In this document: in pieces, positions 48,798 through 64,000 of the stretch | How positions within the stretch are numbered: position 1 is the first letter of the stretch | Layout: each line of letters opens with the position of its first letter | Origin: an uncultured Flavobacterium sp. | GTDB lineage: Bacteria; Bacteroidota; Bacteroidia; Flavobacteriales; Flavobacteriaceae | Assembly (NCBI GenBank): GCA_963511475.1 | Contig: CAUPJC010000001.1 | Span: forward strand, 184,436 to 248,435 | Direction of reading: 5' to 3' | Length of the DNA: 64,000 nt | Notes under the pieces: generated by a model | Told to the model about the DNA's origin: nothing | Seen by the model: the letters and a program-made list of their open reading frames with translations, nothing else | Database searches by the model: none | Made by a program: the position numbers and the translations under genes

Positions 48798-48809
48798 GTT
48801 GGAATTTAT

Positions 48810-48842
48810 AAAAAAAAACCTTCTTTATTTAAAGAAGGTTTT
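48810..48842 (-). terminator. Terminator-like hairpin in the mscS leader
   Basis: Perfect 12-bp stem AAAACCTTCTTT / AAAGAAGGTTTT with a U9 tail on the minus strand. Confidence 0.85.
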
Positions 48843-48853
48843 GAATTGAACGG

Positions 48854-48861
48854 CAAAAATA
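48854..48861 (-). promoter_or_regulatory. -7 element upstream of mscS
   Basis: TATTTTTG on the minus strand. Confidence 0.5.
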
Positions 48862-48920
48862 CTAATTTAATATTTTAAAAAAAAAGATAATTTTGAGCCT
48901 TCTTTTATGTAAAGAAGTGT

Positions 48921-49286
48921 TTATATTTCTGTAGTGCCAGAATCGTCTTTGTCAGATTTTTTATTTTCTGTTAGGCTGTCAATAACTTCGGAGCTTTTTG
49001 TTTTTGCTTCGTCTAATAGTGATTCTGCTTTTTCAATATAAGGAGAAGTTACTTCTTTTACTTTAGCTACTGCATCTTCTACAAAGGCTTCAGCTTTCTC
49101 AATGTGAGGAGTTGCCGTTTCTTTGATTTTATCAGCTGTTTCTTCTACAAAAGCTTCTGCTTTTTCCACATAAGGCTGAGCGTTTGTTTTGGTTTCTTCA
49201 ATAACAGTTTCGGCTTGGTCAATTAGTTCAGATGCTGTTTCTTTGGCCGAGCCAAATAGATTTTTAAAAAATGATGATACTCCCAT
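48921..49286 (-). CDS. Acidic amphipathic helical repeat protein (YtxH/apolipoprotein-like)
   Basis: Three 22-aa repeats, each starting with Pro (PYVEKAEAFVE, PHIEKAEAFVE, PYIEKAESLLD); 66-bp DNA period. Confidence 0.75.
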   Translation of the reverse strand: MGVSSFFKNLFGSAKETASELIDQAETVIEETKTNAQPYVEKAEAFVEETADKIKETATPHIEKAEAFVEDAVAKVKEVTSPYIEKAESLLDEAKTKSSEVIDSLTENKKSDKDDSGTTEI

Positions 49287-49311
49287 AGTTTTATAGATTT
49301 GGTTAAAAAAT

Positions 49312-49319
49312 CAAAATTA
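49312..49319 (-). promoter_or_regulatory. -7 element for the 22-mer repeat gene
   Basis: TAATTTTG on the minus strand, 25 nt before the ATG. Confidence 0.5.
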
Positions 49320-49431
49320 AGTTTTTTATTTAAATAATTGAAGAGGTGTTGTTTATTATTTTGTTTGAAGGGATAATATCAAGTTTTTTGTTAAAAGGAG
49401 TTGGTTTTTGCTAAACCAAAAAATAAAGCAT

Positions 49432-49463
49432 AAAAAAAGCGTCTCTATCTTGAAACGCTTTTT
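49432..49463 (-). terminator. Intrinsic terminator of nfu
   Basis: AAAAAGCGTCTC / GAAACGCTTTTT. The C/A mismatch becomes G-U on the minus strand. Confidence 0.8.
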
Positions 49464-49509
49464 AAAATTTGTTTTTTATTTAAAAAAAACTATTTCTATG
49501 GATTAATAA

Positions 49510-50403
49510 TTAAACTGCTTCTACCTTAATTCCTTCATCATTCAACATGCTTTTTAACATATTTTCGATACCGCTTTTTAAAGTGAAAGTTGATGATGGG
49601 CAACCATTACAAGCTCCCTGCATAATTACCTTTACAGTTTTTGTAGCATCATCATAAGAATCAAAAAGAATGTTTCCTCCATCTGCAGCAACGGCTGGTT
49701 TTACATATTCTTCTAAAATATTGATAATTTTTTGAGACGTTTCATCAAGGGAATCAAATGATTCATCTTTTGCTTTTTCGTCTTTAACAATGGTTTGAAT
49801 TAAGTTTTCGTCAAGAACAGTTCCGCCGTTTTCAATAAACTGTTTGATAAAGGTTCTTAATTCTAATGTAATATCCTGCCATTCATTAATGTCGTATTTT
49901 GTAACCGAAATATAATTTTCGTCAATAAATATTTCTTTTACATACGGAAATTTGAATAGTTCGGTTGCCAATGGTGATGCTGTGCTTTGATCGATATTTT
50001 TAAATTCTACAGCATTTTTGGTTATCATTTTATTGACAACGAATTTTAGCGCCGCAGGATTTGGAGTCGATTCTCCATAAACGGTGATTGCTTGTTTTTT
50101 TGGTTTGTTCTCATCAGCAATAATTATAAGTCCGCCCTTATTAACATAAGCTTCAATTTGTTCAGCAACGGCATCTTTTACATCATCCCATTCTACGATG
50201 CTGAATCTTTCGATAGCAATAAAATTTCCCGAAATGTAAACCGTTTTTACAAATGGTAAATAGAAAAGCTGCTGTGCCAGCGGAGAGGCTTTTGCTTCGT
50301 CTATATTTTTAAATTCAAAGCTTTCATTTTGAGTGATAAAGTCTTGAAATTCAAATTTTATTATAGTAGGGTTTTGTGTGTCTTTTATAGTAACTTTAGT
50401 CAT
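49510..50403 (-). CDS. NifU/Nfu family Fe-S biogenesis protein (two Nfu_N domains plus NifU_C)
   Basis: TQNPTIIKF and TPNPAALKF repeats; PAVAADGGNI, GACNGCPSS. Confidence 0.92.
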   Translation of the reverse strand: MTKVTIKDTQNPTIIKFEFQDFITQNESFEFKNIDEAKASPLAQQLFYLPFVKTVYISGNFIAIERFSIVEWDDVKDAVAEQIEAYVNKGGLIIIADENKPKKQAITVYGESTPNPAALKFVVNKMITKNAVEFKNIDQSTASPLATELFKFPYVKEIFIDENYISVTKYDINEWQDITLELRTFIKQFIENGGTVLDENLIQTIVKDEKAKDESFDSLDETSQKIINILEEYVKPAVAADGGNILFDSYDDATKTVKVIMQGACNGCPSSTFTLKSGIENMLKSMLNDEGIKVEAV

Positions 50404-50421
50404 GAGTTTTGTTATTTTTTG

Positions 50422-50461
50422 CAAATTTACTAAAGTTATTTTCCACGATTAACTATATTTG
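50422..50461. promoter_or_regulatory. Back-to-back -7 elements for nfu (minus) and porP/sprF (plus)
   Basis: TAAATTTG on minus at 50422-50429; TATATTTG on plus at 50454-50461. Confidence 0.5.
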
Positions 50462-50527
50462 ATTTTTTAATGAATAAATTAACAAAAGTTTTTTCCTGCA
50501 TAATTAATTTTATAAACCATATCATAA

Positions 50528-51523
50528 ATGTATACTAGAATAAGGTTAGTAATTGCTCTCTTTTTTATCAGTTTAAGTGCTTTTTCGCAGGAAGGAATAC
50601 CAGTATATTCAGATTATTTGTCAGATAATTATTATTTGATTTTCCCATCAATGGCAGGGGCTTCAAATTGCAGTAAATTAAGACTTACCGCAAGAAAACA
50701 ATGGTTTGACCAGGAAAATGCACCAGCCCTTCAAACCTTGAGCTATAATGGCAAAGTAGGAGAGAGATCGGGAGTAGGAGCCATACTTTTTAATGATGTA
50801 AACGGATATCATTCCCAATTTGGCTTCAAGGCTACTTATGCACATCATATTATGTTTTCAAGAGATGAAGTAGATTTGAATCAGTTGTCTTTTGGTGTTA
50901 ATGTTGGTGTTAATCAAAGTCAGTTAGACGAAACTGATTTTCAGAATTCTGGCGAATATGATCCGGCTTTGGGAAATATAGAACAGAATGCTTCTTATTT
51001 TAATTTAGATATTGGAGCATCATATAACCTTTTTGATTTTAGTTTGAATGCAGTTGTGAAAAATGTTTTAGAAACCCGTCAGACTCTTTATTCAGAATAT
51101 GAAAGCGATAATTTAAGAAAATTTATTATTAGCGGCGGTTATGTTTTTGGTAATCCTGATAAGGTTTTATGGGAGCCTTCTTTACTGTATCAATATGTAG
51201 ATAAAACCAAGGAGAGCTCATTGGATATGAATTTAAAAGTCTACAAAAGTTTAGAAATGGGGCAATTATGGGGAGGTTTGTCTTATAGAAATAGTTTTGA
51301 TGGTGCCGAATTCACAAATGGAGGAGGTACTAATAGCCAGAAACTGCAATATATTACTCCTATCGTTGGGTTTAATTATAAAAACTTTATGTTTGCTTAC
51401 ACTTATACTCATTTGTTAGGAGAAATACAGTACGGAAATTCAGGATTTCACCAGCTTACTTTAGGGTTTAACTTTTTATGCAGACCTAAAAAATACGAAT
51501 GTAACTGTCCTGCAGTTAATTAA
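50528..51523 (+). CDS. PorP/SprF family type IX secretion outer membrane protein
   Basis: Signal peptide, Y.DY...YYLI.P.MAG, R.QW...APA.QTLS, FAYTY, HQLTLGF. Confidence 0.85.
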   Translation: MYTRIRLVIALFFISLSAFSQEGIPVYSDYLSDNYYLIFPSMAGASNCSKLRLTARKQWFDQENAPALQTLSYNGKVGERSGVGAILFNDVNGYHSQFGFKATYAHHIMFSRDEVDLNQLSFGVNVGVNQSQLDETDFQNSGEYDPALGNIEQNASYFNLDIGASYNLFDFSLNAVVKNVLETRQTLYSEYESDNLRKFIISGGYVFGNPDKVLWEPSLLYQYVDKTKESSLDMNLKVYKSLEMGQLWGGLSYRNSFDGAEFTNGGGTNSQKLQYITPIVGFNYKNFMFAYTYTHLLGEIQYGNSGFHQLTLGFNFLCRPKKYECNCPAVN

Positions 51524-51537
51524 TTATAATTTTTGTA

Positions 51538-52050
51538 ATGATAATAAAATCTGTTAACGGAAAAATACCAATTATACCCGAAGATTGTTATGTGGCTGAG
51601 AATGCTACTGTAGTTGGTGATGTTACTTTTGGTGCTGAATGTAGTGTTTGGTTTAATGCTGTGATTCGTGGCGATGTAAATTTTATCAGGATGGGGAATA
51701 AGGTTAATATTCAGGATGGAGCAATTGTTCATTGCACTTATCAAAAACATCCTACTATTATAGGTAATAATGTTTCCGTTGGACATAATGCAATTGTTCA
51801 TGGCTGTACGATTCACGACAATGTATTGGTTGGCATGGGAGCAATAATAATGGATAATTGTGTCGTGGGAAGCAATTCAATTGTGGCTGCAGGAGCAGTA
51901 GTTACTCAAAACACTATAATTGAGCCAGGTTCTATTTATGCTGGAGTCCCTGCCAAAAAAGTTAAGGATATTGATCAATCCAATTTTGCCGGAGAGATTG
52001 AGCGTATATCAAATAATTACGTGATGTATTCGAGTTGGTTCAAAGAGTAA
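51538..52050 (+). CDS. Gamma carbonic anhydrase family protein
   Basis: Hexapeptide repeats, IRGD, NIQDG, Zn ligands in VHC and GHNAIVHG. Confidence 0.93.
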   Translation: MIIKSVNGKIPIIPEDCYVAENATVVGDVTFGAECSVWFNAVIRGDVNFIRMGNKVNIQDGAIVHCTYQKHPTIIGNNVSVGHNAIVHGCTIHDNVLVGMGAIIMDNCVVGSNSIVAAGAVVTQNTIIEPGSIYAGVPAKKVKDIDQSNFAGEIERISNNYVMYSSWFKE

Positions 52051-52071
52051 ATTAGCACTCTATTTTTACAA

Positions 52072-52785
52072 CTAAATATTTATTTTCTCAAAGAAAGAAG
52101 TTTTATAACTTTCACTAATTGGCAGTCTTTTATCAGTTATTAACACTTTGTTTTTTTGGATAGATTTTACATGTTTAATATTGATAATATAGGAACGGTG
52201 AATTCTTGCAAAACCTTTGGAAGATAACAAGTTTTCCAGTTTTATTAAACTTATCAGGGTTAATGTATACTTACTGTCTGTGGTGTATATTTTGACGTAG
52301 TCTTTTAATCCTTCGATAAATAAAATATCAGAAAAATTAATTTTTACATTTTCATATTCTGCACGTACAAACATAAAATCATGTTCAATTTCTGGAGCAT
52401 TTACTGTTTGATTTGGTGTCGGTATTCTTTTTGGAACAAAAATCTGCTGGGCACGCATTACCGCTTTTAAAAACCGGTTAAAAGGAATTGGCTTTACTAA
52501 ATAATCTACCGCGCCAAGGTTAAAACCTTCCACAGCATAATTAGAATAAGCAGTAGTAAATATAATTAATGGTTTTTTCTCGATAGCATTGATAAAATCA
52601 ATTCCGGAAAAATGTGGCATTTCGATATCTAAAAAGATTAAATCAATCTCAGACTGATTAATTATGGATATTGCATCAATAGCATTGGTAAAGGTAGTCA
52701 CCAGTTCGAGTGAATCTATTCTGCTAACAAATTCTACCAATAAATCTACTGCTAATGGCTCGTCGTCTATAATAACACATTTCAT
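52072..52785 (-). CDS. LytTR family response regulator
   Basis: Receiver IIDDEPLA / FLDIEMP / KP and LytTR FARIHRSYIIN. Confidence 0.96.
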   Translation of the reverse strand: MKCVIIDDEPLAVDLLVEFVSRIDSLELVTTFTNAIDAISIINQSEIDLIFLDIEMPHFSGIDFINAIEKKPLIIFTTAYSNYAVEGFNLGAVDYLVKPIPFNRFLKAVMRAQQIFVPKRIPTPNQTVNAPEIEHDFMFVRAEYENVKINFSDILFIEGLKDYVKIYTTDSKYTLTLISLIKLENLLSSKGFARIHRSYIINIKHVKSIQKNKVLITDKRLPISESYKTSFFEKINI

Positions 52786-52794
52786 ATTCCTTAA

Positions 52795-53910
52795 TTATGA
52801 TGTTGGTACAAATGTATTTCTTTGTGGCTGTATTTGATCTAACTGCAGAATCAAATGAGCGGTAAATTTCGAATCTGTTGATATCAGATTTAGCTGATGC
52901 CTGTTTGGATAAAGCAAAGCAAGTCTGTTTTTGATGTTTGCCAATCCAATTCCTGAATTTTCAGGGTCTTTTTTGTTGTTCTCGATTTTATTTTCAATCC
53001 AAAAAGAGAACCCATTTTCTTCAAGTGTTATTACAATTTTTACATAAGCAGTTCCTTTGTAATCGGTTCCATATTTGAATGCATTTTCTATAAACGAAAT
53101 TAGCAGCATGGGTTCTATATACCTGTCTTTGGTATTGCCATGGATGTTTATAGAGATATTTTCAATATTATTAAGTCTTAATTTTTGTAATTCAATATAG
53201 TTTTTAATGTAGTCAATTTCCTTTTCGAGCAAAACATATTTATTATCAGTTTCATAAAGCATGTACCGCATCATTTCGGACAAAGTAACGATGGCATCAG
53301 GCACGAGATCAGATTTTTTATGTGCTAAGGAGTAAATGCTGTTTAGCGAATTGAATAAAAAATGAGGATTTGTCTGTGTTCTCAAATAGTTTAATTCAGT
53401 TGCCGTTCTTTGGCTTTCAGCGATCAGTTTATTTTGCTGGTCATCATATAATTCTGATAGCGTTTTGATGATGGTACTGATGGCAATGATTAATACATAA
53501 AAGACTGATGGCACCATTTTAAAGAAAAACGACTGGTCTCTCTTGGGCATTCTGTGATTGATATTTTCATTGTATGGTATTCCAGGGAAATTTCCTCTAT
53601 TTTGGAATCTGATTTCTCTAAATTCCGGCATGAAAAATTCGTGCCTGATAAGCATGAAAATTATTATTAGAATCAGTAAGATGCTTATATAATAGGCATA
53701 TTTTTTTTGCAAAAGAAAATGAGTGATCAGATAAGTATAATTAAGATAAAAAAGAAATATTCCAGTTATCCATTGAATATAAAAGTCAGTACTGATGCGA
53801 AATGGACTTTCGTAAAACTGAATAAGGGAAATGCCAATAAAAAAACACCAAATGATAATATGAATCAGTATTTTATTGGAACCGTTATTTTTTATTGACG
53901 AGAAGTTCAT
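52795..53910 (-). CDS. LytS/YehU-type sensor histidine kinase
   Basis: Four TM segments, LRTQTNPHFLFNSLN, LLEKEI, FIENAFKYG, GIGLANIKNRL. Confidence 0.95.
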   Translation of the reverse strand: MNFSSIKNNGSNKILIHIIIWCFFIGISLIQFYESPFRISTDFYIQWITGIFLFYLNYTYLITHFLLQKKYAYYISILLILIIIFMLIRHEFFMPEFREIRFQNRGNFPGIPYNENINHRMPKRDQSFFFKMVPSVFYVLIIAISTIIKTLSELYDDQQNKLIAESQRTATELNYLRTQTNPHFLFNSLNSIYSLAHKKSDLVPDAIVTLSEMMRYMLYETDNKYVLLEKEIDYIKNYIELQKLRLNNIENISINIHGNTKDRYIEPMLLISFIENAFKYGTDYKGTAYVKIVITLEENGFSFWIENKIENNKKDPENSGIGLANIKNRLALLYPNRHQLNLISTDSKFTAHLILQLDQIQPQRNTFVPTS

Positions 53911-54276
53911 TTACATTTTTATTTTTAATAAAATTAAATCATTTTTGGTAATAGTCGGTGAATTATTAGAGTTCAATTTTTGGAGTACCAATTGTCCCAC
54001 AGCCATAGCTTCTTTTTCAGTTTTAAAACTTTTAAATTCGCTGATTACAGGTATAATAGTTTGTTTAATGATTGTTTTGTTATAGTTTTTAATTACATAT
54101 CCCCAGCCATTAGCTGTTTTAATGGATTGAATTTTTAAGTCTTGTTCTTTTCTGCAGAAAATAAACAGGACTAATCCAATTATAAATATAATCAGGCTTA
54201 AATTTAATATATATGACAAATTCCTCTGGGGTTTTTTCCAGAAGAATTTGTTGGAGGTATTAATTATCATCGTCAT
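53911..54276 (-). CDS. DUF4907-like small membrane-anchored protein
   Basis: One TM segment, then GWGY.I...IKQ..IP......F....A..VG.LV..KL. Start overlaps the Kelch gene end; stop abuts the kinase ATG. Confidence 0.75.
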   Translation of the reverse strand: MTMIINTSNKFFWKKPQRNLSYILNLSLIIFIIGLVLFIFCRKEQDLKIQSIKTANGWGYVIKNYNKTIIKQTIIPVISEFKSFKTEKEAMAVGQLVLQKLNSNNSPTITKNDLILLKIKM

Positions 54277-55258
54277 TTTGTTCCTCATTTGGTTTAAATT
54301 CCCATACGTCATCGAAGTAGGAAGTTCCTGATTTTCCTAAGGCGATAAAGCCTCTTTCGCCATTTATGGTAATCCCTATAGCATCAGATCTGCCTGATCC
54401 TTCTAAAGCTGTTTTAGAAGTCCAAATGTCTGTATTCGGATTGTACTCCCAAATGGTATTTCCGCTTGATCCGCAGGCAATATAACCCAAACCATTTATG
54501 GCAAAACTGGATGCATTGGCTCTTACAATGGAGTAGGTGTCATGATCGTCTTCGTCATCATCTAAATCTCTTTTTCTGGTCCAAACATCGGTATTTGGAT
54601 CAAATGCCCAAAAATCGACTTGATTGACACCGCTGTTTATCCCAGTCCCTAAATAGGCAATATCGTTAATCACAAATACAGTGGCATTTCTTCTTTTGTT
54701 ACCGCTAAAACCATTTACCTGTGTCCAGGTATTGTCTGTGTCATTATATTGGTAAAAATCTTTTAGATAATTACCATCGTATCCTGTTCCCAAAAAAGCT
54801 TTGCCTCCCACTTGAAAACCTACGGCACTGTAACGGGCTGTTCCTGCAAAATCTGCTTTTTGAGACCAAGTATTTGTGTTTGGACTGTATTGGTAAAAGT
54901 CTTTTAATTTATTGGTTCCGTCATAGCCGAGCCCAATATATCCTTTTCCGTTTAATTCAAAGCCACTTCCAGAACTTCTCGCAATCCCTGTGAAATCTGC
55001 TTTTTGTTCCCAATAGTCGCCCTCAGAATTGTAAGCCCATAAGTCTTTTAGGTACTCATCTCCTGTATAACCCGTTGTTACATAAGCAAAAGTGCCAATA
55101 ACAAAACTCGTCGCACTTGATCGGGCAGGACCATCAAATGCTGATTTTTTTATCCAGTTACCAAGTGTATCATCATCGTCATCATCATTATTGCATCCAA
55201 TGAAAATTAAGCTGATAAGTAATGTGGTAATAAATATACCTTTTTGTAAATGTTTCAT
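54260..55258 (-). CDS. Kelch-repeat (six-bladed propeller) surface lipoprotein
   Basis: Lipobox IFIGC followed by NNDDDDDD. Six repeats of about 48 aa of the form W..K..F.G..R......G. Confidence 0.88.
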   Translation of the reverse strand: MKHLQKGIFITTLLISLIFIGCNNDDDDDDTLGNWIKKSAFDGPARSSATSFVIGTFAYVTTGYTGDEYLKDLWAYNSEGDYWEQKADFTGIARSSGSGFELNGKGYIGLGYDGTNKLKDFYQYSPNTNTWSQKADFAGTARYSAVGFQVGGKAFLGTGYDGNYLKDFYQYNDTDNTWTQVNGFSGNKRRNATVFVINDIAYLGTGINSGVNQVDFWAFDPNTDVWTRKRDLDDDEDDHDTYSIVRANASSFAINGLGYIACGSSGNTIWEYNPNTDIWTSKTALEGSGRSDAIGITINGERGFIALGKSGTSYFDDVWEFKPNEEQNDDDN

Positions 55259-55274
55259 AATGTGCATGTGTTTA

Positions 55275-56138
55275 TTAAAGTTTGTATTTGATGGTAATGG
55301 AAAAGACGCTTCCATTTTTTAAGGGCTTATTTATTTCTGCTGTTTTATTTTCATCCGAAAATTTGAATTCTTTATTGGCCGAATACCCTCCTCTGAAATT
55401 AACAAACCAAGAGGTGTCAATGTTCCTTTCGTATTGTAATGTTGTTTCCATTTGCGAAAAGCCAACTTTCGTTATAATGCTTTTATCATCTGCGATAATG
55501 GAAGGATTCAGATTGTAAATGCTTCCGCTAAAGTCATTACTAAGTCTGAATTTATCACGGATAGAACTGGCATAAGAAAGTTCAGAATTTGGGAATCCTA
55601 ATTTTAAATATGTTTTTTTACTTAACTGATGATTGATTGCGAAAGTTGGAAGTATCTGCGGTTTTCCAAAAACGGTCATTCTTTTTATTCCTAAATCAAT
55701 ACTGCTGTTTTTGTTTAGGGTCTGATTAATTTCTATTCCTCCCAAAATTGTTACATCACCAATACTGATTGTATTTTGAAAATTAACAATCGGTTCGAAG
55801 GTTAAATTCAATTTTGTGTTTTTAGAAAACGGATGTGAAAACTCAAAAGCATTGTTAAAACTATTAAAATGTGTATTGTTGTAATTTGAGTTATAATCTG
55901 CTAACAGATAAGTTTCTATTTCATCAGTAATTGTTGTGCTTTTATATTTAAATGTATTTGTCAATTTATTGGCAGTACTGATGTCTTTAAAGAATTGCAT
56001 TCCAATTTCAGTTTGTTTTATAGAACCGTTATCTATTGGTTCTGTTTTAGTATTAAATTCAAAAGCGTATCCATTTTGTGCATAAACACTAAATAGCGGG
56101 ATTAGAATCAGTATCGCAGTAAAGTTGTGTATTCTCAT
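55275..56138 (-). CDS. Small outer membrane beta-barrel (DUF6268-like)
   Basis: Signal peptide AYA/VYA, alternating hydrophobic strands, LGFPNSELSY, terminal strand SVFSITIKYKL. Confidence 0.65.
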   Translation of the reverse strand: MRIHNFTAILILIPLFSVYAQNGYAFEFNTKTEPIDNGSIKQTEIGMQFFKDISTANKLTNTFKYKSTTITDEIETYLLADYNSNYNNTHFNSFNNAFEFSHPFSKNTKLNLTFEPIVNFQNTISIGDVTILGGIEINQTLNKNSSIDLGIKRMTVFGKPQILPTFAINHQLSKKTYLKLGFPNSELSYASSIRDKFRLSNDFSGSIYNLNPSIIADDKSIITKVGFSQMETTLQYERNIDTSWFVNFRGGYSANKEFKFSDENKTAEINKPLKNGSVFSITIKYKL

Positions 56139-56154
56139 TATTTAATTATTGGTT

Positions 56155-56353
56155 CAAAAGTAGCTGTGTTGTTAATTAATAAAAAAGAATATATATGCAT
56201 TGCCTGTTTTCATAGACAAACTGGCTATTACTCATGCTGAATCTCTTTTTGAAACTGAATAGCAGAATGTAGACTGTTTTTTTGCTTTTATAGACAGATT
56301 GATCCAAGTGGTATATGTTATTAGGACTGCTGGACTGCGGACTTATATATTTG
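56155..56353. promoter_or_regulatory. Divergent promoter region with mirrored 21-bp-spaced repeats
   Basis: -7 elements TACTTTTG (minus, 56155-56162) and TATATTTG (plus, 56346-56353). Repeats TAGACTG/TAGACAG (plus, 56270 and 56291) and TAGCCAG/CAGGCAA (minus, 56227 and 56206). Confidence 0.55.
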
Positions 56354-56368
56354 CCCAAAAAAATAGGT

Positions 56369-57691
56369 ATGTACAAGTTTTTGTTTTTAATTTTTTCAGG
56401 ACTGCTGATTATTTCCTGCGATTCTGATGTTGATGCAGGAGAGTTTGTTGTAGGGTCAGATTATTTGGCTCTAAAAAATAAAGTGATTTTAATAGACACT
56501 CTTACTGTGGATGTTTCAACTGTAAAGCTTGACTCTTTAGTTACTTCAGGCGGAAGCAGAATATTGGTTGGGAATTATGATGATCCTCTTTTTGGCAAGG
56601 TGAAATCAGACAGTTATTTTCAGGTTTCTACATCTTCTTATAATCTTTACAGTCAAAATTCAGATACAGATGCAACAGGATATGTTTTTGATTCCATTGC
56701 AATGATTTTGCGGTATGACGATTATTATTATGCAGATACTACAAAGGTTCAGACTCTAAATATTCATCGGGTACTGAAGAATTTTAAGCCCAATGTAAAT
56801 GATGCTAGTTTTTATAATAATTCGAGTTTAGGATATGATGATACCAGTCTGGGGACTATAACATATGAACCAAAGCCATTAGGAAAGGACAGTATTAATA
56901 TAAAAATGGACAATCAGTTCGGTATAGAACTTTTTAACAAGTTTAAGAATAATGAAATCGAAAATGCAACAGATTTTACAGATTATTTAAAGGGTTTTGT
57001 ATTAAAACCGTCTTCCGTTTCATCTTCCAGTGTAATTGGTTTTAACTTGTCCAGCGTACTTCGTTTGTATTATTCAAAAGGGAAAGGAGATACTGGAGAT
57101 GTCTATGAAATGGATTTTACAATATCTGATACCAATAAACAGTTCAATGCAGTTTCATCTGACAGAACGGGAACTTTAATCCAAGACTTACCGTTGTCCA
57201 AAATGAGTTTGTCTAGTGTCTATACTGGTAATAAAGGGTTTATTCAATCGGGTGCAGGAATAGCCTGCAGGGTAGATTTTCCAAGTATCAAGCAATTAAA
57301 ATATCTTGCAGAAAAAGGAGCTATTGTAGACGCAAAGCTGATAATAAGACCTATCAAAAACTCATATTCGGAGATGTTTCCATTGCCCGAAAATCTAAGT
57401 GTTTATGTAGTCGATAAATTGAACCGGTATAAATCAACATTGACAAATTCTGAAGGTGAAACTGTGGTTGCCACTCTCAGTCAAACAGCTGATGAATTTG
57501 ATGAAAATGTTGCTTATGAATTGTCTTTAGGTTCTTTTCTGCAAAAAGAAATGCTAAAAGAATCAGATTCTAAAAGCGGTCTGCTTTTCACCTTTACCAA
57601 TTTGTCAAAAATTGTAGATAGGGTTGTTTTTGGAGATCAAACCGAAAAGGAGAATAAAATGAAATTACAAATTTATTATATAACATATTAA
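56369..57691 (+). CDS. DUF4270-like surface lipoprotein (BamH-family candidate)
   Basis: Lipobox IISC followed by acidic DSDVD; IDTLTV, G.Y.DP.FG.V.SDSYFQ, FDSI...L, KL.IYY C-terminus. Confidence 0.75.
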   Translation: MYKFLFLIFSGLLIISCDSDVDAGEFVVGSDYLALKNKVILIDTLTVDVSTVKLDSLVTSGGSRILVGNYDDPLFGKVKSDSYFQVSTSSYNLYSQNSDTDATGYVFDSIAMILRYDDYYYADTTKVQTLNIHRVLKNFKPNVNDASFYNNSSLGYDDTSLGTITYEPKPLGKDSINIKMDNQFGIELFNKFKNNEIENATDFTDYLKGFVLKPSSVSSSSVIGFNLSSVLRLYYSKGKGDTGDVYEMDFTISDTNKQFNAVSSDRTGTLIQDLPLSKMSLSSVYTGNKGFIQSGAGIACRVDFPSIKQLKYLAEKGAIVDAKLIIRPIKNSYSEMFPLPENLSVYVVDKLNRYKSTLTNSEGETVVATLSQTADEFDENVAYELSLGSFLQKEMLKESDSKSGLLFTFTNLSKIVDRVVFGDQTEKENKMKLQIYYITY

Positions 57692-58927
57692 ATGAAAGCA
57701 AGTTTGCAGTTTTTAGTTTTAGTGTTTCTTTCTTCTTGGTCATATTCACAAAGTATTGCTACATCGCCTTATTCTCTTTATGGATTAGGAAGTTTGTACG
57801 AATCCAATTTTGGATTGACAGCAGGTTTAGGTACTGCTGGAATAGCGCTCCCGTCTGATGATTTTATCAATAATAAAAATCCAGCTTCTTTAGTTAATAT
57901 TCCTGCTAATAATTTCTTTTTTGAGATTGGCGGTACTGGAATTCAATCCTCTTTTGAAGATAATAGCAAAAAAGAAAACCGGAATAATTTTCAGTTTTCT
58001 CATTTTGCTTTTGCTTTTCCAATTAATAAAAAATCGGCTTTTAGTTTAGCGTTGATGCCTTATTCAAGTTCTTCTTTTAAAATATCTGGATTAAAAATTC
58101 CAATAATAGACGGCAATAATGAATACTATTATTTGGATGTAATCGGGACTGGCGGACTGAATAATTTGGATTTGTCGTATGCCTATAAATTAAGCGATAA
58201 ATTATCTTTAGGTTTCTCTGCTTCAGTTCTTTTTGGGAACACTACAGACGAAAGAACTTATAGCATTGGCAATTCAATTACAAGTATAGATAAAAAAGTT
58301 AATTATAACGGTATTCGGCCTGGTTTAAGTTCGCAATTTAAAATGAACCAGTCTCTAACTTTTGGAATGAATGTAAAATCTCCAACCCGTGTAAATGCAT
58401 CCAAAATTCAGTCAGTTACGGTTTTAAATGATTCAGGCACATCTTCCTTAGAGACCGATGAAAGATCAGATACGGATGATTTTTATCTGCCTTTAAACAT
58501 CGGTCTTGGGGTCAATAAATCATTTAAGAATAAATTGAATGTTACTTTTGATTATGAAAAAAGTTTTTGGGACGCTACAAACCAATCTGATCTGTATGGT
58601 GATTTTGCTGATCAGGAAAAATTTTCATTTGGGTTTTCATACCAAAAAACAAAAATATCACGAAATTATTTTGATAGAATAAAGTATGTAGCTGGTCTGC
58701 ATTATGATACAGGCTATCTAGAAGTGGACAGCAAAAAAATAATTGATAAAAATTTTTCTGTAGGAGCTTCACTTCCTTTAGATCATTTATCCTCTGCTTT
58801 ATTTATTTCTTATACTTATGGAAGTAAAGGACAGGTAACTAACTTATTAATTCAGGAGAATTATCATAAATTGACATTGAATCTTAATTTAGACGGCGTT
58901 TGGTTTGTTCGAAGAAAAACAGAATAG
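57692..58927 (+). CDS. FadL/OmpP1-like outer membrane beta-barrel (BamG-family candidate)
   Basis: Signal peptide, SPYSLYGLG, NNKNPASL, G.GGLN, terminal WFVRRKTE. Start abuts the upstream stop (TAAATG). Confidence 0.75.
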   Translation: MKASLQFLVLVFLSSWSYSQSIATSPYSLYGLGSLYESNFGLTAGLGTAGIALPSDDFINNKNPASLVNIPANNFFFEIGGTGIQSSFEDNSKKENRNNFQFSHFAFAFPINKKSAFSLALMPYSSSSFKISGLKIPIIDGNNEYYYLDVIGTGGLNNLDLSYAYKLSDKLSLGFSASVLFGNTTDERTYSIGNSITSIDKKVNYNGIRPGLSSQFKMNQSLTFGMNVKSPTRVNASKIQSVTVLNDSGTSSLETDERSDTDDFYLPLNIGLGVNKSFKNKLNVTFDYEKSFWDATNQSDLYGDFADQEKFSFGFSYQKTKISRNYFDRIKYVAGLHYDTGYLEVDSKKIIDKNFSVGASLPLDHLSSALFISYTYGSKGQVTNLLIQENYHKLTLNLNLDGVWFVRRKTE

Positions 58928-58928
58928 T

Positions 58929-59705
58929 TTAAAAATTCTTTTCTTCGACTCTATATTTATTCTCTAAGATTTCGCTTAAAACTTTTGGATTGGTATTGGT
59001 AAAAAAAAGCGGATTTCTATTTTGAATACTCGAAAAACCTGTTTTTTCTCTGAGTATATTTTGCGTTTGCTTTGCCACTGCCTCACCCGAGTCAATAATC
59101 TGAATATGTTCAGGAAGAATTTTTTTTATCTGCGGAATTAAATAAGGGTAATGACTGCAGCCCAATACTAAATAATCAATGTTTGCTTCAATCATCGGAG
59201 TCAGGTAGGAATGCAGTAATTCAGTCATTTCAGGAGAATCGATTTTTCCGTCTTCGATCAATTGAACTAAGCCATGGCCTATCTGTTCGATGATTTTTGT
59301 ATCTTGAAACTTCTCGGTTGTTTTATTAAAAAGTTCACTGTTAAGCGTTCCTTTAGTAGCCAATATTCCTATTGTCTGAGTTTTAGAGTTTGTTGCTGCG
59401 GGCTTTATTGCTGGTTCTATGCCAATAAACGGAATGCTGTATTTTGCTCTTAATTCCTGAATAGCATTTGTTGTTGCAGTATTGCAGGCTACGACAATTA
59501 ATTTGCATCCCATTTCGATTAATAAATCCGTGTTTTTCATGCTTAGCGCAATGATTTCATTTTTTGATTTCTGTCCATAAGGAGCATTCTTGCTGTCTGC
59601 GAGATAAATGGTTTGTTCGTTAGGCAATAATTCATGAATGGCTTTCCAAATAGAGGTTCCTCCTATTCCAGAGTCAAAAACACCAATAGGGTTGTCGTTT
59701 GTCAT
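58929..59705 (-). CDS. murI: Glutamate racemase
   Basis: IGVFDSGIGG, VVACNTAT, LVLGCSHYP. Confidence 0.97.
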   Translation of the reverse strand: MTNDNPIGVFDSGIGGTSIWKAIHELLPNEQTIYLADSKNAPYGQKSKNEIIALSMKNTDLLIEMGCKLIVVACNTATTNAIQELRAKYSIPFIGIEPAIKPAATNSKTQTIGILATKGTLNSELFNKTTEKFQDTKIIEQIGHGLVQLIEDGKIDSPEMTELLHSYLTPMIEANIDYLVLGCSHYPYLIPQIKKILPEHIQIIDSGEAVAKQTQNILREKTGFSSIQNRNPLFFTNTNPKVLSEILENKYRVEEKNF

Positions 59706-59816
59706 GATTTTAAGTTTAAACTAGAGTGTTTTTATTTTATGAGATGCTTTTTTTCTTTAGTAAGTTACTGTTGAAAGTAAGATTTCTAAGTTTAAATATA
59801 CTATATTTTATAGCGT

Positions 59817-59859
59817 AAAAAAAAACTGCTCACTCTAAATTATTTTTAGAATGAGCAGT
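59817..59859 (-). terminator. Intrinsic terminator of the bamA-skp-skp operon
   Basis: 15-bp stem ACTGCTCACTCTAAA / TTTAGAATGAGCAGT with one G-U on the minus strand and a U9 tail. Confidence 0.88.
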
Positions 59860-59878
59860 ATTTAAATATTTGTTTAGA

Positions 59879-60379
59879 TTAAAAACCTAAATCTTTTTTT
59901 ACGTCAACAGTAATGTTTGTTCCGTCAGCAAGTAAAAGAGTAGAACTGTCAAGTACATATTGGAATCCTTTTGCTTTACCAATTTTTGAAATAGAAGCTT
60001 TCACTTTTTCCATAATTGGTTTCATGATTTCAGATTCTTTATTTTGTAATTCTTTTTGAGCATTGTCTCTAAAGTCTACAATTCTTTTTTGCATATCCTG
60101 AACTTCTTTTTGACGTTCTTGATTTACAGCTTCAGTAACAGTTGCAGATTCAGCTTCGTATTTCTTTAATTTTGCTTGGTACTCTTCAACCATTTTTTTG
60201 TAGTCAGTGTCATAAGTTGTACCTAGTGTTTGTAATTGCTTGTTAGCATCTAATATAGCAGGCATTTTACCCATAATATCAGCTACATCAACATGAGCCA
60301 CTTTAGTTTGAGCGTTTGAAATTTGTGTAGCTCCTATAAATAGTATTGCAGCAATTAGTAAAGTTTTGAATTGTTTCAT
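59879..60379 (-). CDS. skp: OmpH/Skp periplasmic chaperone
   Basis: Signal peptide, KVAHVD, coiled coil, GFQYVLD...LL.ADG.NIT.DV. Confidence 0.93.
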   Translation of the reverse strand: MKQFKTLLIAAILFIGATQISNAQTKVAHVDVADIMGKMPAILDANKQLQTLGTTYDTDYKKMVEEYQAKLKKYEAESATVTEAVNQERQKEVQDMQKRIVDFRDNAQKELQNKESEIMKPIMEKVKASISKIGKAKGFQYVLDSSTLLLADGTNITVDVKKDLGF

Positions 60380-60422
60380 TGTGATAAAAATATTTAGTAA
60401 TTAATTAGTATTTATGTTCTTT

Positions 60423-61424
60423 TTATTTTACTTCATTTGCTTTTTTAAGCGCTTCTTTCTCTTGTATTTCTTTTAATCTTTTTTCTTCGAGTGCTTTTTT
60501 GTTAGCTTCTCTTTCTTCTAAGATTTTTTTTCTTTTTTCCTCTAAGGCTTTCTTGCGTTCCTCTTGGGCACTCGGTTTAACTTCTTCAGCTGCAGTTTTA
60601 GCAGTTTCTGAATTTACAGATGGAGCAGCTGTTTGTGTTTCTGTGTTTGACGGAGCAACAACTGTGCCATTCTTTTTTGCTTCTCTTTCAGCTAACAGCT
60701 GTTTTCTTTTTTCCTCGTATTTTTTTTTAGCCTCTTCTTGAGCTACTTTTTTATCAGCAACTAATTTTTCTCGTGCAGTTTGTTTGTCTAATAAAGCTTT
60801 TTCTCTTGCAGCTAGTTCAGGATTTTCATCTATTGCATCCTCTTTTTCTTCTTTAGCCTGTTCTTCTTTTAACTGTTTCTTTGTTAGCTGTTCTCTTTTT
60901 TCGGTTCGGTTTAATACTCGAATTACCTGATCACTGATGTCAAATCTTTTTGCTGCAAAAAGTATTGTCAAGTCTGAAGATTTGTCAAATATAAAATCGT
61001 ATTTCTTAGCTTCAGCAATATCCTGCACAGCTGTGAAAACTTGATCTTGAATAGGTTTTACCAAACCTGCTTTATATATCATCAGATCACCATTTGGCCC
61101 AAATCTTTTTTGCTGGTAATCTAATTTTTCTGTTTCAAGAAATTTTATTTCCGTTTCTCTCTCTTCAATCAATTCGGACGTCAATAAAGGTCTCTCAGCT
61201 TTTAAGGCCTCAGTTAGTTTATTGATTTCTATTTTTTTTGCTTCAATTTCCTGCTTCCATTTCTGGGCTTTTTGTTCCAGCTGTGCTTTAGCATCGGTAT
61301 AGTTGGGTACATTTTCTAATATGTATTCCATGTCAATGTAACCTACTTTATTTCCTCTGGTTTGTGCGTTAATTGCTGTTGAAACAATTGCGGATAAAAT
61401 TATAAATAAAAATTCTTTTCTCAT
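60423..61424 (-). CDS. OmpH/Skp chaperone with long charged C-terminal extension
   Basis: KVGYIDMEYIL...YDFIFDKS...DISDQV domain, followed by a Lys/Glu/Ala-rich tail of about 160 aa. Confidence 0.9.
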   Translation of the reverse strand: MRKEFLFIILSAIVSTAINAQTRGNKVGYIDMEYILENVPNYTDAKAQLEQKAQKWKQEIEAKKIEINKLTEALKAERPLLTSELIEERETEIKFLETEKLDYQQKRFGPNGDLMIYKAGLVKPIQDQVFTAVQDIAEAKKYDFIFDKSSDLTILFAAKRFDISDQVIRVLNRTEKREQLTKKQLKEEQAKEEKEDAIDENPELAAREKALLDKQTAREKLVADKKVAQEEAKKKYEEKRKQLLAEREAKKNGTVVAPSNTETQTAAPSVNSETAKTAAEEVKPSAQEERKKALEEKRKKILEEREANKKALEEKRLKEIQEKEALKKANEVK

Positions 61425-61459
61425 AATTTTTAATTTTAGAAATTTCAAACCAAATTTAC

Positions 61460-64000
61460 TTAAAATTGTTGGCCTATTATGAAATGCGTTTGCCAGCCAC
61501 TAGGCGTGACAGAGCCGTCAACAGGGTCAAATCCATAACCAAAGTCAATACCTAATAATCCAAATGCAGGCATGAATACTCTTAATCCAACTCCTGATGA
61601 TCTAGCTAAATTGAATGGCTGATAATCTGATAATGTTTTATAAGATTGTCCAGCTTCTGCAAAAGCCAAAGCATAAATAGAAGCTGATGCTTTCAATGTA
61701 ATAGGATAACGCAATTCTAATGAGAATTTATTGTAAATTGTTGCACCATATGCGTCTCCATTGCCGTCTGCTGGTGTTAAAGATGCATTTTCGTAACCTC
61801 TCAATCCTATGTTTTGTCTTCCGTCGATAGAACTTCCAGCCATACCATCTCCTCCTAAGTAGTATCTTTCAAAAGGAATAACGCCTCGGTCTTGATTGTA
61901 TGCTCCTAAAAATCCAAACTGCACTAAACTACGTAATACTAACTTTTTATATAAAGTAGTAAACCAGTCTCCAGTAAATTGAACCTTATAGTATTCCAGC
62001 CATTTGTATTTTTCCTGATCTACTTTTCCAGGATCGGCAACGGCATCTTGATAATTGCCTGGTTCTACTTTATTTGCTATAGTTCCGGACGAAGGCAGTT
62101 TGTCTAAATAATCACCAGAATTTACCACTTTATCATTATTATCTACATAAGAATTACCAGAGTAAATATACTTGTATTTTTTTTGATCGCCTAATGTTGC
62201 ATAATCGATTCCATTAAATAATGAATATGGAAGTGTGAATTCACCAGTTATTCCAAATTCAGCACCATACGTTGGGAATATTGGATTTAGTCCTTTGTTG
62301 TTACGTGTTAAACCAATATTGTAAGATAAATTTTTAGAACTTCCATTTGCAAATGTAAATAATCCATAATAGTAATTATGCAAATCGTATTGCTGGAATC
62401 TAAGCGATTGCGAAAGAGTGAAAAAATCATCTGGAACTGTAAGCCTTTTTGCTATACCTACAGATAATGACAAAATGTTAATGTATTTCGATTTATCAAT
62501 TCTTTGCGTTTGATAGTTAGAGCTGTATTGTTGGCTAAAAGCAAATGAACTGCTAAATGAAACTGGTTTTTTTCCTCCAAACCAAGGTTCTGAGAAAGAT
62601 AAACTGTAGGTTTTGTAATAGGAACTAGCCTGTAAACGCAATGCTACTTTTTGTCCGTCTCCCATTGGAAGAGGATGGTAGGCGTCTTTATTGAATATGT
62701 TTCTAGTTGAAAAGTTATTGAAAGACAATCCCAAAGTTCCTACGAAACCGCCTCCGCCATATCCTCCTTGTAGTTCTATCTGGCTAGCGCCTTTTTCTAC
62801 AACATTGTATTCAATATCGACTGTACCTGCACCAGAATCAACATTTTTGAATTTAGGCTCTATTTTTTCAGGGTCAAAAAAGCCTAATTGACCAATTTCT
62901 CGAATAGTTCTTACTAATTCTGCTTTATTGTATTTTTCTCCTGGTTTTGTTCTTAGCTCTCGATAAATAACTTCATCATTAGTCTTATCATTTCCAACTA
63001 CTGTAATTTTGTTAAAATAAGCAATTGGGCCTTCAGTAATTCGGATCTCAAAATCGATTTTATTATCAGTAGTTTTGGTTTCTACAGCATTGATATTAGA
63101 GAATAAATATCCGGTGTTTTGATATAAATTGGTCATGTCCTCACCGTCTGGTTTTGACTTGTCTGCTATTCTTTCCTGCAATAGTACTCCATTATATACA
63201 TCTCCTGTATTAATACCAAGCATGCTTCTTAAGCCTTCATCGGAATATACTGTATTGCCAATAAATTTAATATTGCCAAAATAATATTTAAGTCCTTCTT
63301 CGACTTTGATTTTAATGTAAATTGCATTTTTTTCTTCATTATAAGCCACAGAGTCACTTATAATACGTGCATCACGATACCCTATTTTTTTATAGTCATT
63401 AACTATTTTTTCTAAGTCTTCTTGGTATTTATCTTCAATGTACTTTGAACGCTTTAATATGTTAATTGGGTTTTTAACTTTTGTGTTTTTCATTGAACTC
63501 AAAAGTTTTTTGCTTGGAATTTCTTTATTCCCTTCAAAATCAATGTTGTATATTTTTATTTTTTCACCAACATCTACTTTTACAAGCATGTTTACCTGAT
63601 TGCTTGTTAAGGTATCTTTTTTTGTTGTTATGTAAACTTTTGCATTGAAAAAACCATCTTTCTTGTATTTTTTTTCAATGTAATTTTTGGTAGTTGTAAT
63701 TAAATTTTCGGTTACAATCTTACCGTTAGTAAGACCATTATCTTTAATAAAGGTTTCGGTTTTGCTTTTAGACACACCAACGAATTTTACTTCATTTATT
63801 TTAGGTAATTCTTTGATATTTAAGTCCAGAAAGATGCTGTCATTTTCTATTCTGTTTATGTAAAATGAAATCTCATCAAAAAGACCAAGCTTACCTAGTT
63901 TTTTTATAGAACTGCTGATTTGCTCGCCAGGAATTGTAATTTCCTGTCCTTTCTCTAAGCCGGCAAATGTAACAACGGTCTGCGGATTGAAACTAATTTC
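61460..64000 (-). CDS. bamA: Outer membrane protein assembly factor BamA (5' end outside window)
   Basis: POTRA repeats, GGYGGGG first strand, LRGY loop motif, terminal THFIIGQQF. The frame is open to the window edge (EISFNPQTVV...). Confidence 0.96.
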   Translation of the reverse strand, partial: EISFNPQTVVTFAGLEKGQEITIPGEQISSSIKKLGKLGLFDEISFYINRIENDSIFLDLNIKELPKINEVKFVGVSKSKTETFIKDNGLTNGKIVTENLITTTKNYIEKKYKKDGFFNAKVYITTKKDTLTSNQVNMLVKVDVGEKIKIYNIDFEGNKEIPSKKLLSSMKNTKVKNPINILKRSKYIEDKYQEDLEKIVNDYKKIGYRDARIISDSVAYNEEKNAIYIKIKVEEGLKYYFGNIKFIGNTVYSDEGLRSMLGINTGDVYNGVLLQERIADKSKPDGEDMTNLYQNTGYLFSNINAVETKTTDNKIDFEIRITEGPIAYFNKITVVGNDKTNDEVIYRELRTKPGEKYNKAELVRTIREIGQLGFFDPEKIEPKFKNVDSGAGTVDIEYNVVEKGASQIELQGGYGGGGFVGTLGLSFNNFSTRNIFNKDAYHPLPMGDGQKVALRLQASSYYKTYSLSFSEPWFGGKKPVSFSSSFAFSQQYSSNYQTQRIDKSKYINILSLSVGIAKRLTVPDDFFTLSQSLRFQQYDLHNYYYGLFTFANGSSKNLSYNIGLTRNNKGLNPIFPTYGAEFGITGEFTLPYSLFNGIDYATLGDQKKYKYIYSGNSYVDNNDKVVNSGDYLDKLPSSGTIANKVEPGNYQDAVADPGKVDQEKYKWLEYYKVQFTGDWFTTLYKKLVLRSLVQFGFLGAYNQDRGVIPFERYYLGGDGMAGSSIDGRQNIGLRGYENASLTPADGNGDAYGATIYNKFSLELRYPITLKASASIYALAFAEAGQSYKTLSDYQPFNLARSSGVGLRVFMPAFGLLGIDFGYGFDPVDGSVTPSGWQTHFIIGQQF

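Follow-up and report, generated by a model that had tools for sequence, protein, structure and literature searches.

The subject of this study is a cluster of seven genes at positions 52072-58927 of a 64,000-nt window from an uncultured Flavobacterium sp. (contig CAUPJC010000001.1, positions 184,436 to 248,435 of the forward strand; all coordinates below are those of the window), whose two arms diverge from one shared control region. Sequence comparison identifies the right arm, a DUF4270-family lipoprotein gene followed by a FadL-like barrel gene, as a paralogous sub-module of the β-barrel assembly machinery (BAM), and ties it across Bacteroidota to the Kelch lipoprotein and the DUF4907 protein of the left arm, which also encodes a DUF6268 barrel, a histidine kinase and a LytTR response regulator. 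The best explanation for the region is a single conserved functional neighbourhood built around this BAM sub-module. From these relationships a complex, an inducing signal and a mode of regulation can be inferred, and the favored proposal, held with modest confidence, is that BamG2 and BamH2 form an outer-membrane module, expressed only under certain conditions, in which Kelch serves as the surface partner alongside DUF4907 and whose expression the cluster's own two-component system turns on. Two papers from 2025 reported that the Bacteroidota BAM has the extra subunits BamG and BamH together with a poorly expressed second copy (PMC12611786, PMC12578637).

The barrel gene (bamG2, 57692..58927, plus strand, 411 aa) begins 0 nt after bamH2 and encodes a FadL-like 14-strand barrel that scores 374.8 bits against the NCBIfam BamG equivalog NF053685 (cut-off 250) over residues 20-409. 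It matched, over its full length, the BamG chains of three solved Bacteroidota BAM complexes (9hiv_F, 1.2e-33; 9hjm_F, 2.5e-32; 9n2d_B, 4.7e-23), and a conserved SPY-x2-YG-x-G...FG segment at its mature N-terminus aligns with the solved chains. The preceding lipoprotein gene (bamH2, 56369..57691, plus strand, 440 aa, start MYKFLF) encodes a member of PF14092 (109.6 bits, cut-off 27), the family formerly called DUF4270 and now named BamH in the precomputed Pfam labels, in agreement with the published assignment of BamH to DUF4270 (PMC12611786, PMC12578637). A single-sequence search of the PDB with this protein returned no match; only a family profile, built from 28 cluster-linked DUF4270 proteins, reached the BamH chain of Porphyromonas gingivalis (9hjm_G, E 2.6e-22). 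A lipobox-like Cys is present in 42 of 42 cluster-linked DUF4270 proteins.

Both products correspond to the '2' paralogues rather than to the primary subunits, because the barrel reaches no more than 85 bits with F. johnsoniae BamG (9n2d_B) and the lipoprotein only 38.1 bits, confined to its N-terminal region, against the F. johnsoniae BamH equivalog NF053686 (cut-off 420), a value that fits a BamH2 paralogue and not BamH itself. The barrel is likewise not placed as an orthologue of the primary, essential BamG (Fjoh_1412), being 51-59% identical to the syntenic bamA-locus copy of more distant Flavobacterium, including F. pectinovorum and F. chilense. The arm as a whole is syntenic with Fjoh_1685 and Fjoh_1686 at the F. 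johnsoniae bamA locus, which are the co-transcribed bamH2 and bamG2, respectively; the essential BamG (Fjoh_1412) and BamH (Fjoh_0823) are encoded away from that locus (PMC12611786, PMC12578637). Combined, the profile scores and the gene order identify the right arm as the orthologue of bamH2-bamG2. With the primary BamG of Bacteroides thetaiotaomicron the window BamG2 scores 120 bits and with that of P. gingivalis 116 bits, in both cases more than with F. johnsoniae BamG, and these scores suggest that the primary BamG of Flavobacterium is the more diverged copy.

In F. johnsoniae, bamG2 and bamH2 can be deleted and show no appreciable expression in rich medium, and the equivalent B. thetaiotaomicron pair, BT_1785-1786, is deletable and was undetected in proteomics; BamH2 is also reported to be without the hairpin that binds BamM (PMC12611786, PMC12578637). 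Conditional expression would explain both the very low expression of the pair in rich medium and the fact that laboratory strains can do without it.

All seven open reading frames (ORFs) of what the earlier note had described as a divergent envelope module were recovered by an ORF listing over 48000-64000. On the minus strand, reading away from the control region, these are the DUF6268 barrel gene (55275..56138), the Kelch gene (54260..55258), the DUF4907 gene (53911..54276), the kinase gene (52795..53910) and the regulator gene (52072..52785). The claimed gaps were reproduced exactly, at 16, -17, 0 and 9 nt for the left arm and 0 nt for the right, as was the 230-nt divergent spacer (56139..56368); the gap values depend on a Kelch start at MKHLQKG (55258) and a DUF4907 start at 54276, the latter being ambiguous since the longest ORF extends to 54312. 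The acidic lipoboxes of the two lipoproteins could be read as ...LIFIGC-NNDDDDDD (Kelch) and ...LLIISC-DSDVDAG (DUF4270), and acidic patches after the lipid Cys are shared by many orthologues. Pfam supports every family above its curated cut-off except for a weak FadL (Toluene_X) match of the BamG2 barrel. The closest match to the Kelch protein (98% identity) comes from a Flavobacterium metagenome-assembled genome (MAG). One flank (50528-52050) carries a PorP/SprF type IX secretion membrane protein and a gamma carbonic anhydrase; the other (58929-63775) carries murI, two skp/ompH genes and bamA, which places the cluster at the bamA locus. The seven-gene arrangement is syntenic in 80 Flavobacterium genomes, with the murI-skp-skp-bamA order kept in all 80 loci retrieved.

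Within Flavobacterium this synteny is uninformative about the linkage of the two arms, because the entire 15-gene neighbourhood is syntenic across the genus, and DUF4907 was used as a marker instead. Scanning DNA with a degenerate version of the DUF4907 core motif yielded at least 120 chunks of 8 kb; those listed were annotated with hidden Markov models built from the window proteins and iterated. Outside Flavobacterium, among the loci listed, a Kelch gene adjoined DUF4907 in 64 of 72 assessable loci, a divergent DUF4270 gene lay beyond the Kelch gene in 31 of 35, and a BamG-like barrel stood beside the DUF4270 gene in 23 of 27. The cluster was found in Chitinophagales, Bacteroidales/Marinilabiliales, Cytophagales, other Flavobacteriales and one MAG labelled Chlorobiota, with flanking genes that vary between taxa. 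Look-ups of exact proteins gave the same picture: Muricauda has [BamG-like][BamH-like] divergent from [Kelch][DUF4907][His_kinase][LytTR] between unrelated flanks, and Dyadobacter and a marine Cytophagales-like contig have [BamH-like] divergent from [Kelch][DUF4907] with no regulator. The cluster barrels of Muricauda, Chitinophaga pinensis, a Bacteroidales MAG and the Chlorobiota MAG score 333-403 bits, above the BamG cut-off. Judged by the synteny in Flavobacterium and by a core that recurs in other orders with different flanks, the seven-gene arrangement is not due to chance. The earlier expectation that all seven families would co-occur across genomes was thus borne out for DUF4270, the FadL-like barrel, Kelch and DUF4907, making the two arms a conserved unit; it held less completely for LytTR and failed for DUF6268, present in 2 of 83 loci outside Flavobacterium.

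These data also bear on whether the arms are independent neighbours, the left one a self-regulated surface system and the right one a silent BAM paralogue that happens to share an ancient gene order. Such an account, considered very unlikely, draws on the uninformative synteny of the 15-gene Flavobacterium stretch and on the separation of the components in some lineages; it is opposed by the divergent BamH-like/Kelch junction, kept between unrelated flanks in at least four orders and one MAG of another phylum, and by the conserved regulator-type repeats between the arms described below. A reverse control points the same way: a scan with the BamG N-terminal motif retrieved approximately 75 solo Bacteroidales BamG genes, none of which had DUF4270, Kelch or DUF4907 nearby. 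In a rough neighbour-joining tree of BamG, the Kelch-linked Bacteroidales barrels fell outside the clade of solo BamG.

Chitinophaga provides a further comparison. In 14 of 14 genomes found with a Chitinophaga DUF4270 query, the order response regulator, histidine kinase, DUF4907, Kelch diverges from DUF4270-BamG. A published table gives C. pinensis a single BamG/BamH pair, the adjacent Cpin_1839/1840, and lists adjacent BamG/BamH pairs in several other phyla of the Fibrobacterota-Chlorobiota-Bacteroidota (FCB) group (PMC12611786, PMC12578637). Taken together, the single adjacent C. pinensis pair, the Chitinophaga clusters and the adjacent FCB pairs suggest that an adjacent pair linked to Kelch-DUF4907 is the older arrangement, kept by the '2' copies of Flavobacterium and Bacteroides. 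A linkage to Kelch, DUF4907 or LytTR was not found in either of the two papers (PMC12611786, PMC12578637), in their supplements or in the other literature searched, and searches by locus tags and family names returned nothing on the left arm.

A broader claim can be built on the same observations, namely that BAM has, throughout the phylum, two unrecognised accessory components working with BamH, the Kelch lipoprotein and DUF4907, and that the LytTR system is a dedicated control circuit for outer-membrane biogenesis; this is regarded as doubtful. Were it correct, the Chitinophaga Kelch and DUF4907 proteins would belong to the housekeeping machine, because the published table lists a single, adjacent pair for C. 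pinensis and the cluster contained an adjacent pair in each of the Chitinophaga genomes examined, and those of Flavobacterium and Bacteroides would stay with BamG2/BamH2.

The right arm was also weighed as part of a surface capture or uptake system, in which the barrels would be channels, DUF4270 and Kelch surface binding proteins or enzymes, and the two-component system the means by which substrate induces the genes. The FadL fold of the right-arm barrel, the weak similarity of the Kelch protein to NanM/YjhT mutarotases and the pairing of a barrel with a surface lipoprotein, which is the usual format of Bacteroidota uptake systems (PMC12578637), would suit such a system, as would dispensability and an expression that is barely present (F. 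johnsoniae) or undetected (B. thetaiotaomicron), as for substrate-induced genes. Nevertheless, uptake is judged unlikely: the barrel exceeds the BamG equivalog cut-off and retains the N-terminal segment that, in BamG and BamG2, is reported to occupy the lateral opening used in FadL transport (PMC12611786, PMC12578637), the DUF4270 profile matches a solved BAM subunit, the NCBIfam NanM models give 37-40 bits, far under their cut-offs of 243-416, and in Chitinophaga the adjacent pair lies inside the cluster in all 14 genomes, and the published table lists no pair for C. pinensis other than an adjacent one. The suggestion that the right-arm barrel is an outer-membrane channel is accordingly doubtful, because BamG-type barrels are described as having no transport function, their lateral opening being plugged by the N-terminus (PMC12611786, PMC12578637).

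The control region between the arms (56139..56368) contains seven conserved features. Nearly all of the 77 Flavobacterium loci compared have a spacer of 226-232 nt, even where the neighbouring DUF6268 protein has diverged to approximately 30-40% identity, and in the Flavobacterium alignment conserved blocks stand out from diverged background columns. On the minus strand there is a Bacteroidota-type -7 box, TACTTTTG (56155-56162), followed along the spacer by an A-rich/GATATATG block (56181-56199), a conserved ATAGAC (56212-56217) that is a third repeat copy, a direct repeat of GTAGAC (56269-56274) and ATAGAC (56290-56295) at a distance of 21 bp, a GGTATATGTTAT block (56310-56321) and a plus-strand -7 box, TATATTTG (56346-56353); a GTATATGTTAT block is also among the conserved spacer elements. 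Both -7 boxes, of the Bacteroidota TAnnTTTG type, were identified by eye, and a sigma-70 promoter scan gave no excess of matches over chance.

LytTR regulators typically bind paired repeats at a spacing of about 21 bp. The pattern RTAGAY-N15-RTAGAY occurs twice in the window, with 0.13 occurrences expected. In other taxa, the oriented repeat TTT(A/G)TC(G/T)AC, read in the Kelch direction, recurs with 21-bp spacing in 10 of the 34 spacers from loci with a regulator (0.36 expected), and the pair in the opposite orientation was found in none of the 34 loci. A repeat pair common to all spacers was rejected, Chitinophaga spacers having none. From these motifs it can be inferred that the regulator controls both arms through the spacer repeats, so that the self-regulation put forward previously is plausible, the 21-bp-spaced repeats lying in the control region and recurring in distant taxa. 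The second exact match in the window (52744-52770, minus strand) falls within the regulator gene, at its 5' end, where the codons spell IDDEPLAVD; a coincidence of the coding sequence is the probable explanation, but a site for autoregulation is conceivable. The spacers of locus L147 and the similar L107 and L139 each carry three tandem repeats at 21-bp intervals.

The response regulator (237 aa) carries a receiver domain (Response_reg, 74.5 bits) and a LytTR domain (69 bits), both above cut-off, with the receiver motifs legible in translation (DD at 7-8, D53, K), and is 77-94% identical across 80 Flavobacterium loci. It falls short of the equivalogs of named systems, scoring 127.6 bits for BtsR (cut-off 246) and 108.3 for LytR (cut-off 375). 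The kinase (371 aa) is of the LytS/YehU 'His_kinase' type (PF06580, 88.5 bits, cut-off 25.2), with a HATPase_c_5 match of 19 bits that is below its cut-off; its N-terminus comprises about four membrane helices and a loop of approximately 45 aa, and the Pfam scan found no five-transmembrane (5TM) LytS sensor domain. The membrane region can be aligned with those of the cluster kinases of Muricauda and Chitinophaga.

A LytTR regulator was found in at least 13 of 26 Chitinophagales, at least 6 of 20 Bacteroidales, 0 of 11 Cytophagales and at least 10 of 13 Flavobacterium chunks, counts that are lower bounds given chunks of only 8 kb. Judging from gene neighbourhoods, the LytTR system is a frequent, not a universal, neighbour of the cluster, and the two-component system is not obligatory, because Cytophagales keep BamH-like, Kelch and DUF4907 genes with no regulator seen. 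Orphan LytTR regulators with no kinase beside them adjoin a BamG-like gene in a Bacteroidales MAG (L147, 1299-2030) and in the Chlorobiota-labelled MAG (L133, 1883-2611). In some Flavobacterium species, among them F. pectinovorum (L123, 920-1630), an additional gene, absent from the window, lies between kinase and regulator; it encodes a 236-aa protein whose lipobox runs into an acidic patch (C-SKSDNDDDG) and whose motifs, by eye, resemble an intradiol-dioxygenase-like fold. The same kinase-regulator gap of about 800 nt is seen in L035, L038, L051, L056 and other Flavobacterium loci.

The Kelch lipoprotein exceeds the cut-offs of several Kelch Pfam models, and its best PDB sequence matches are six-bladed Kelch domains. 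The poly-Asp patch after its lipid Cys (C-NNDDDDDD) predicts surface exposure, and a lipobox-like Cys occurs in 63 of 80 cluster-linked Kelch genes elsewhere, many with an acidic run after it. Two identities were rejected for this protein: a NanM/YjhT mutarotase, for which the Pfam NANM score is 37.1 (cut-off 45) and the NCBIfam scores are those given above, and a BamI homologue, since only Kelch-type models match and BamI belongs to DUF6242.

The DUF4907 protein (76.4 bits, cut-off 25) represents a family of 2,520 representative clusters. Its AlphaFold2 (AF2) model (predicted local distance difference test, pLDDT, 87) consists of an N-terminal anchor helix and a small beta3-alpha2 domain; the fold gives no functional lead, because a Foldseek search of the PDB found no match at E<0.2. 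A lipobox-like Cys followed by basic residues is invariant in Flavobacterium orthologues and missing in many distant members, and for that reason the domain is taken to be periplasmic with an anchor that may be either a lipid or a helix; with the invariant Cys, the description of the protein as an inner-membrane accessory is tentative. DUF4907 comes after Kelch even where no kinase is nearby (Cytophagales), and is therefore read, from gene order, primarily as a partner of Kelch, any accessory role for the kinase being secondary at most. In locus L087, the Kelch genes next to DUF4907 carry type IX secretion C-terminal domains.

The DUF6268 barrel is the first gene of the left arm (48 bits, cut-off 22.8), and its AF2 model (pLDDT 84) is an all-beta barrel of about 14 strands. 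The fold matches, to generic porin, OmpG, CymA and FadL structures at TM-scores of 0.4-0.5, were set aside as uninformative. Among the loci listed, this family was found only in Flavobacterium and Lutibacter, and identity drops to approximately 30-40% across Flavobacterium loci. By this distribution the barrel is a lineage-specific addition outside the conserved set. Where it is missing, short unannotated ORFs (64 and 39 aa) were seen between the BamH-like gene and Kelch (L081, 6771-6965; L086, 6775-6894).

A hairpin (54216..54251, minus strand), found by a scan for terminator-like structures, begins 9 nt past the Kelch stop and lies within the first codons of DUF4907. It has 14 bp in the window, of which 12 bp are conserved: in an alignment of 55 Flavobacterium sequences, 96% of cells are paired and 8 of 12 pairs show compensatory changes, values reached by 0 of 500 shuffled controls. 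The seemingly conserved 'FFW..QKN' peptide of DUF4907 is a by-product of the hairpin stem. Rfam gave no match in 51500-59500. The hairpin probably acts on transcripts at the boundary of structural and regulatory genes, either as an attenuator or as a stabilising element.

DUF4907 immediately precedes the kinase gene, the gap being 0 nt, and this invites another explanation, in which the left arm is an envelope-stress sensor analogous to RcsF-type surveillance and the Kelch protein is a reporter client of lipoprotein export and BAM. By the route envisaged, itself quite improbable, unexported Kelch would meet periplasmic DUF4907, which would signal through the kinase to the regulator and induce BamG2/BamH2 as a back-up. 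The kinase has a small extracytoplasmic loop, which elsewhere appears to be linked to sensing through accessory proteins, the bamA locus is where Flavobacterium carries the cluster, and the regulator is linked to the BAM paralogue pair in several orders, all in keeping with a sensor. Even so, this function is considered quite unlikely, in that Kelch-DUF4907-BamH persists in Cytophagales with no adjacent kinase or regulator, DUF4907 also stands beside type IX-secreted Kelch proteins, and the literature searched holds no experimental hint of stress induction.

For the conditionally expressed BamG2-BamH2 module, the following sequence of events is proposed. The four-helix membrane kinase would sense an envelope or surface signal and phosphorylate the LytTR regulator, which would bind the 21-bp-spaced direct repeats and activate both divergent promoters, including that of its own operon. 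BamG2 would anchor BamH2 in the same way as BamG anchors BamH, and the Kelch lipoprotein may join as a further surface subunit, in a position like that held on BamH in other lineages by the propeller BamI or the isomerase BamM. DUF4907 would serve Kelch as a dedicated partner from within the periplasm, and the hairpin after the Kelch gene may set the ratio of structural to regulatory transcripts. The outcome would be a conditionally expressed alternative or auxiliary unit of outer-membrane biogenesis.

Several observations weigh against this proposal. The Kelch lipoprotein is not homologous to BamI (DUF6242). A B. thetaiotaomicron bamH bamH2 double mutant has a stress phenotype similar to that of the single bamH mutant, which its authors take as an argument against a compensating alternative BAM (PMC12611786, PMC12578637). 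In Cytophagales, BamH-like, Kelch and DUF4907 genes occur with neither a regulator nor a BamG-like gene in the stretch covered, and Chitinophaga spacers have no simple 21-bp repeat pair, though other conserved blocks are present. DUF4907 genes also stand beside arrays of two to five Kelch genes with no BamH-like gene (L087, 8001-12008; L099, L117, L131); the DUF4907-Kelch pair can therefore function without BamH, and the pairing is older or broader than the link to BamH. Lastly, absences are uncertain because most loci are 8-kb chunks.

Overall, the region is less of an uncharacterised system than the earlier note had proposed, since its right arm is the BamH2/BamG2 pair named in 2025 (PMC12611786, PMC12578637). 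What is new here, from gene neighbourhoods, is the phylum-wide linkage of this pair to Kelch, DUF4907 and often LytTR, together with the shared control region. BamG2/BamH2 is embedded in a gene set that crosses orders, and hence is no orphan duplicate; its role is now open to direct experiments in F. johnsoniae. Additionally, DUF4907 and the cluster-linked Kelch lipoproteins are nominated as candidate outer-membrane biogenesis factors in a phylum that includes major gut commensals and pathogens of fish and humans.

Among known regulatory systems, the LytTR-family systems AgrCA, ComDE, LytSR and BtsSR activate adjacent promoters via paired direct repeats with a 12-nt spacer. The window resembles them in having a regulator with receiver and LytTR domains, a PF06580 kinase, regulator genes within one putatively controlled operon, and candidate binding sites in the form of direct repeats, paired at 21 bp, that precede the promoter boxes. 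Unlike LytSR, the window kinase does not have the 5TM LytS sensor domain, and unlike the pheromone LytTR systems, the cluster has no peptide pheromone gene.

The closest relative of the right arm is the BamG2-BamH2 pair of F. johnsoniae and B. thetaiotaomicron, with which it shares the families (BamG equivalog and PF14092/BamH), the arrangement as an adjacent, co-oriented pair with a 0-nt gap, a lipoprotein with an acidic export patch and a barrel with the conserved N-terminal segment; with F. johnsoniae bamH2-bamG2 it further shares the location beside murI-skp-skp-bamA. The published pair was treated in isolation and assigned no role, its Kelch, DUF4907, DUF6268 and LytTR neighbours being unmentioned (PMC12611786, PMC12578637). 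In the core BAM canopy or dome, the FadL-like BamG anchors BamH, which is decorated by BamM in F. johnsoniae, and the BamG-BamH of B. thetaiotaomicron and P. gingivalis is decorated by BamI/J/K, BamI being a six-bladed propeller (PMC12611786, PMC12578637). The window likewise encodes a propeller-type surface lipoprotein beside a BamH-type gene, whereas its Kelch protein falls outside the BamI family (DUF6242). The likeness to the core BAM therefore concerns a possible mode of working, in which a propeller would decorate an anchored BamH-type lipoprotein, rather than membership in the same machine.

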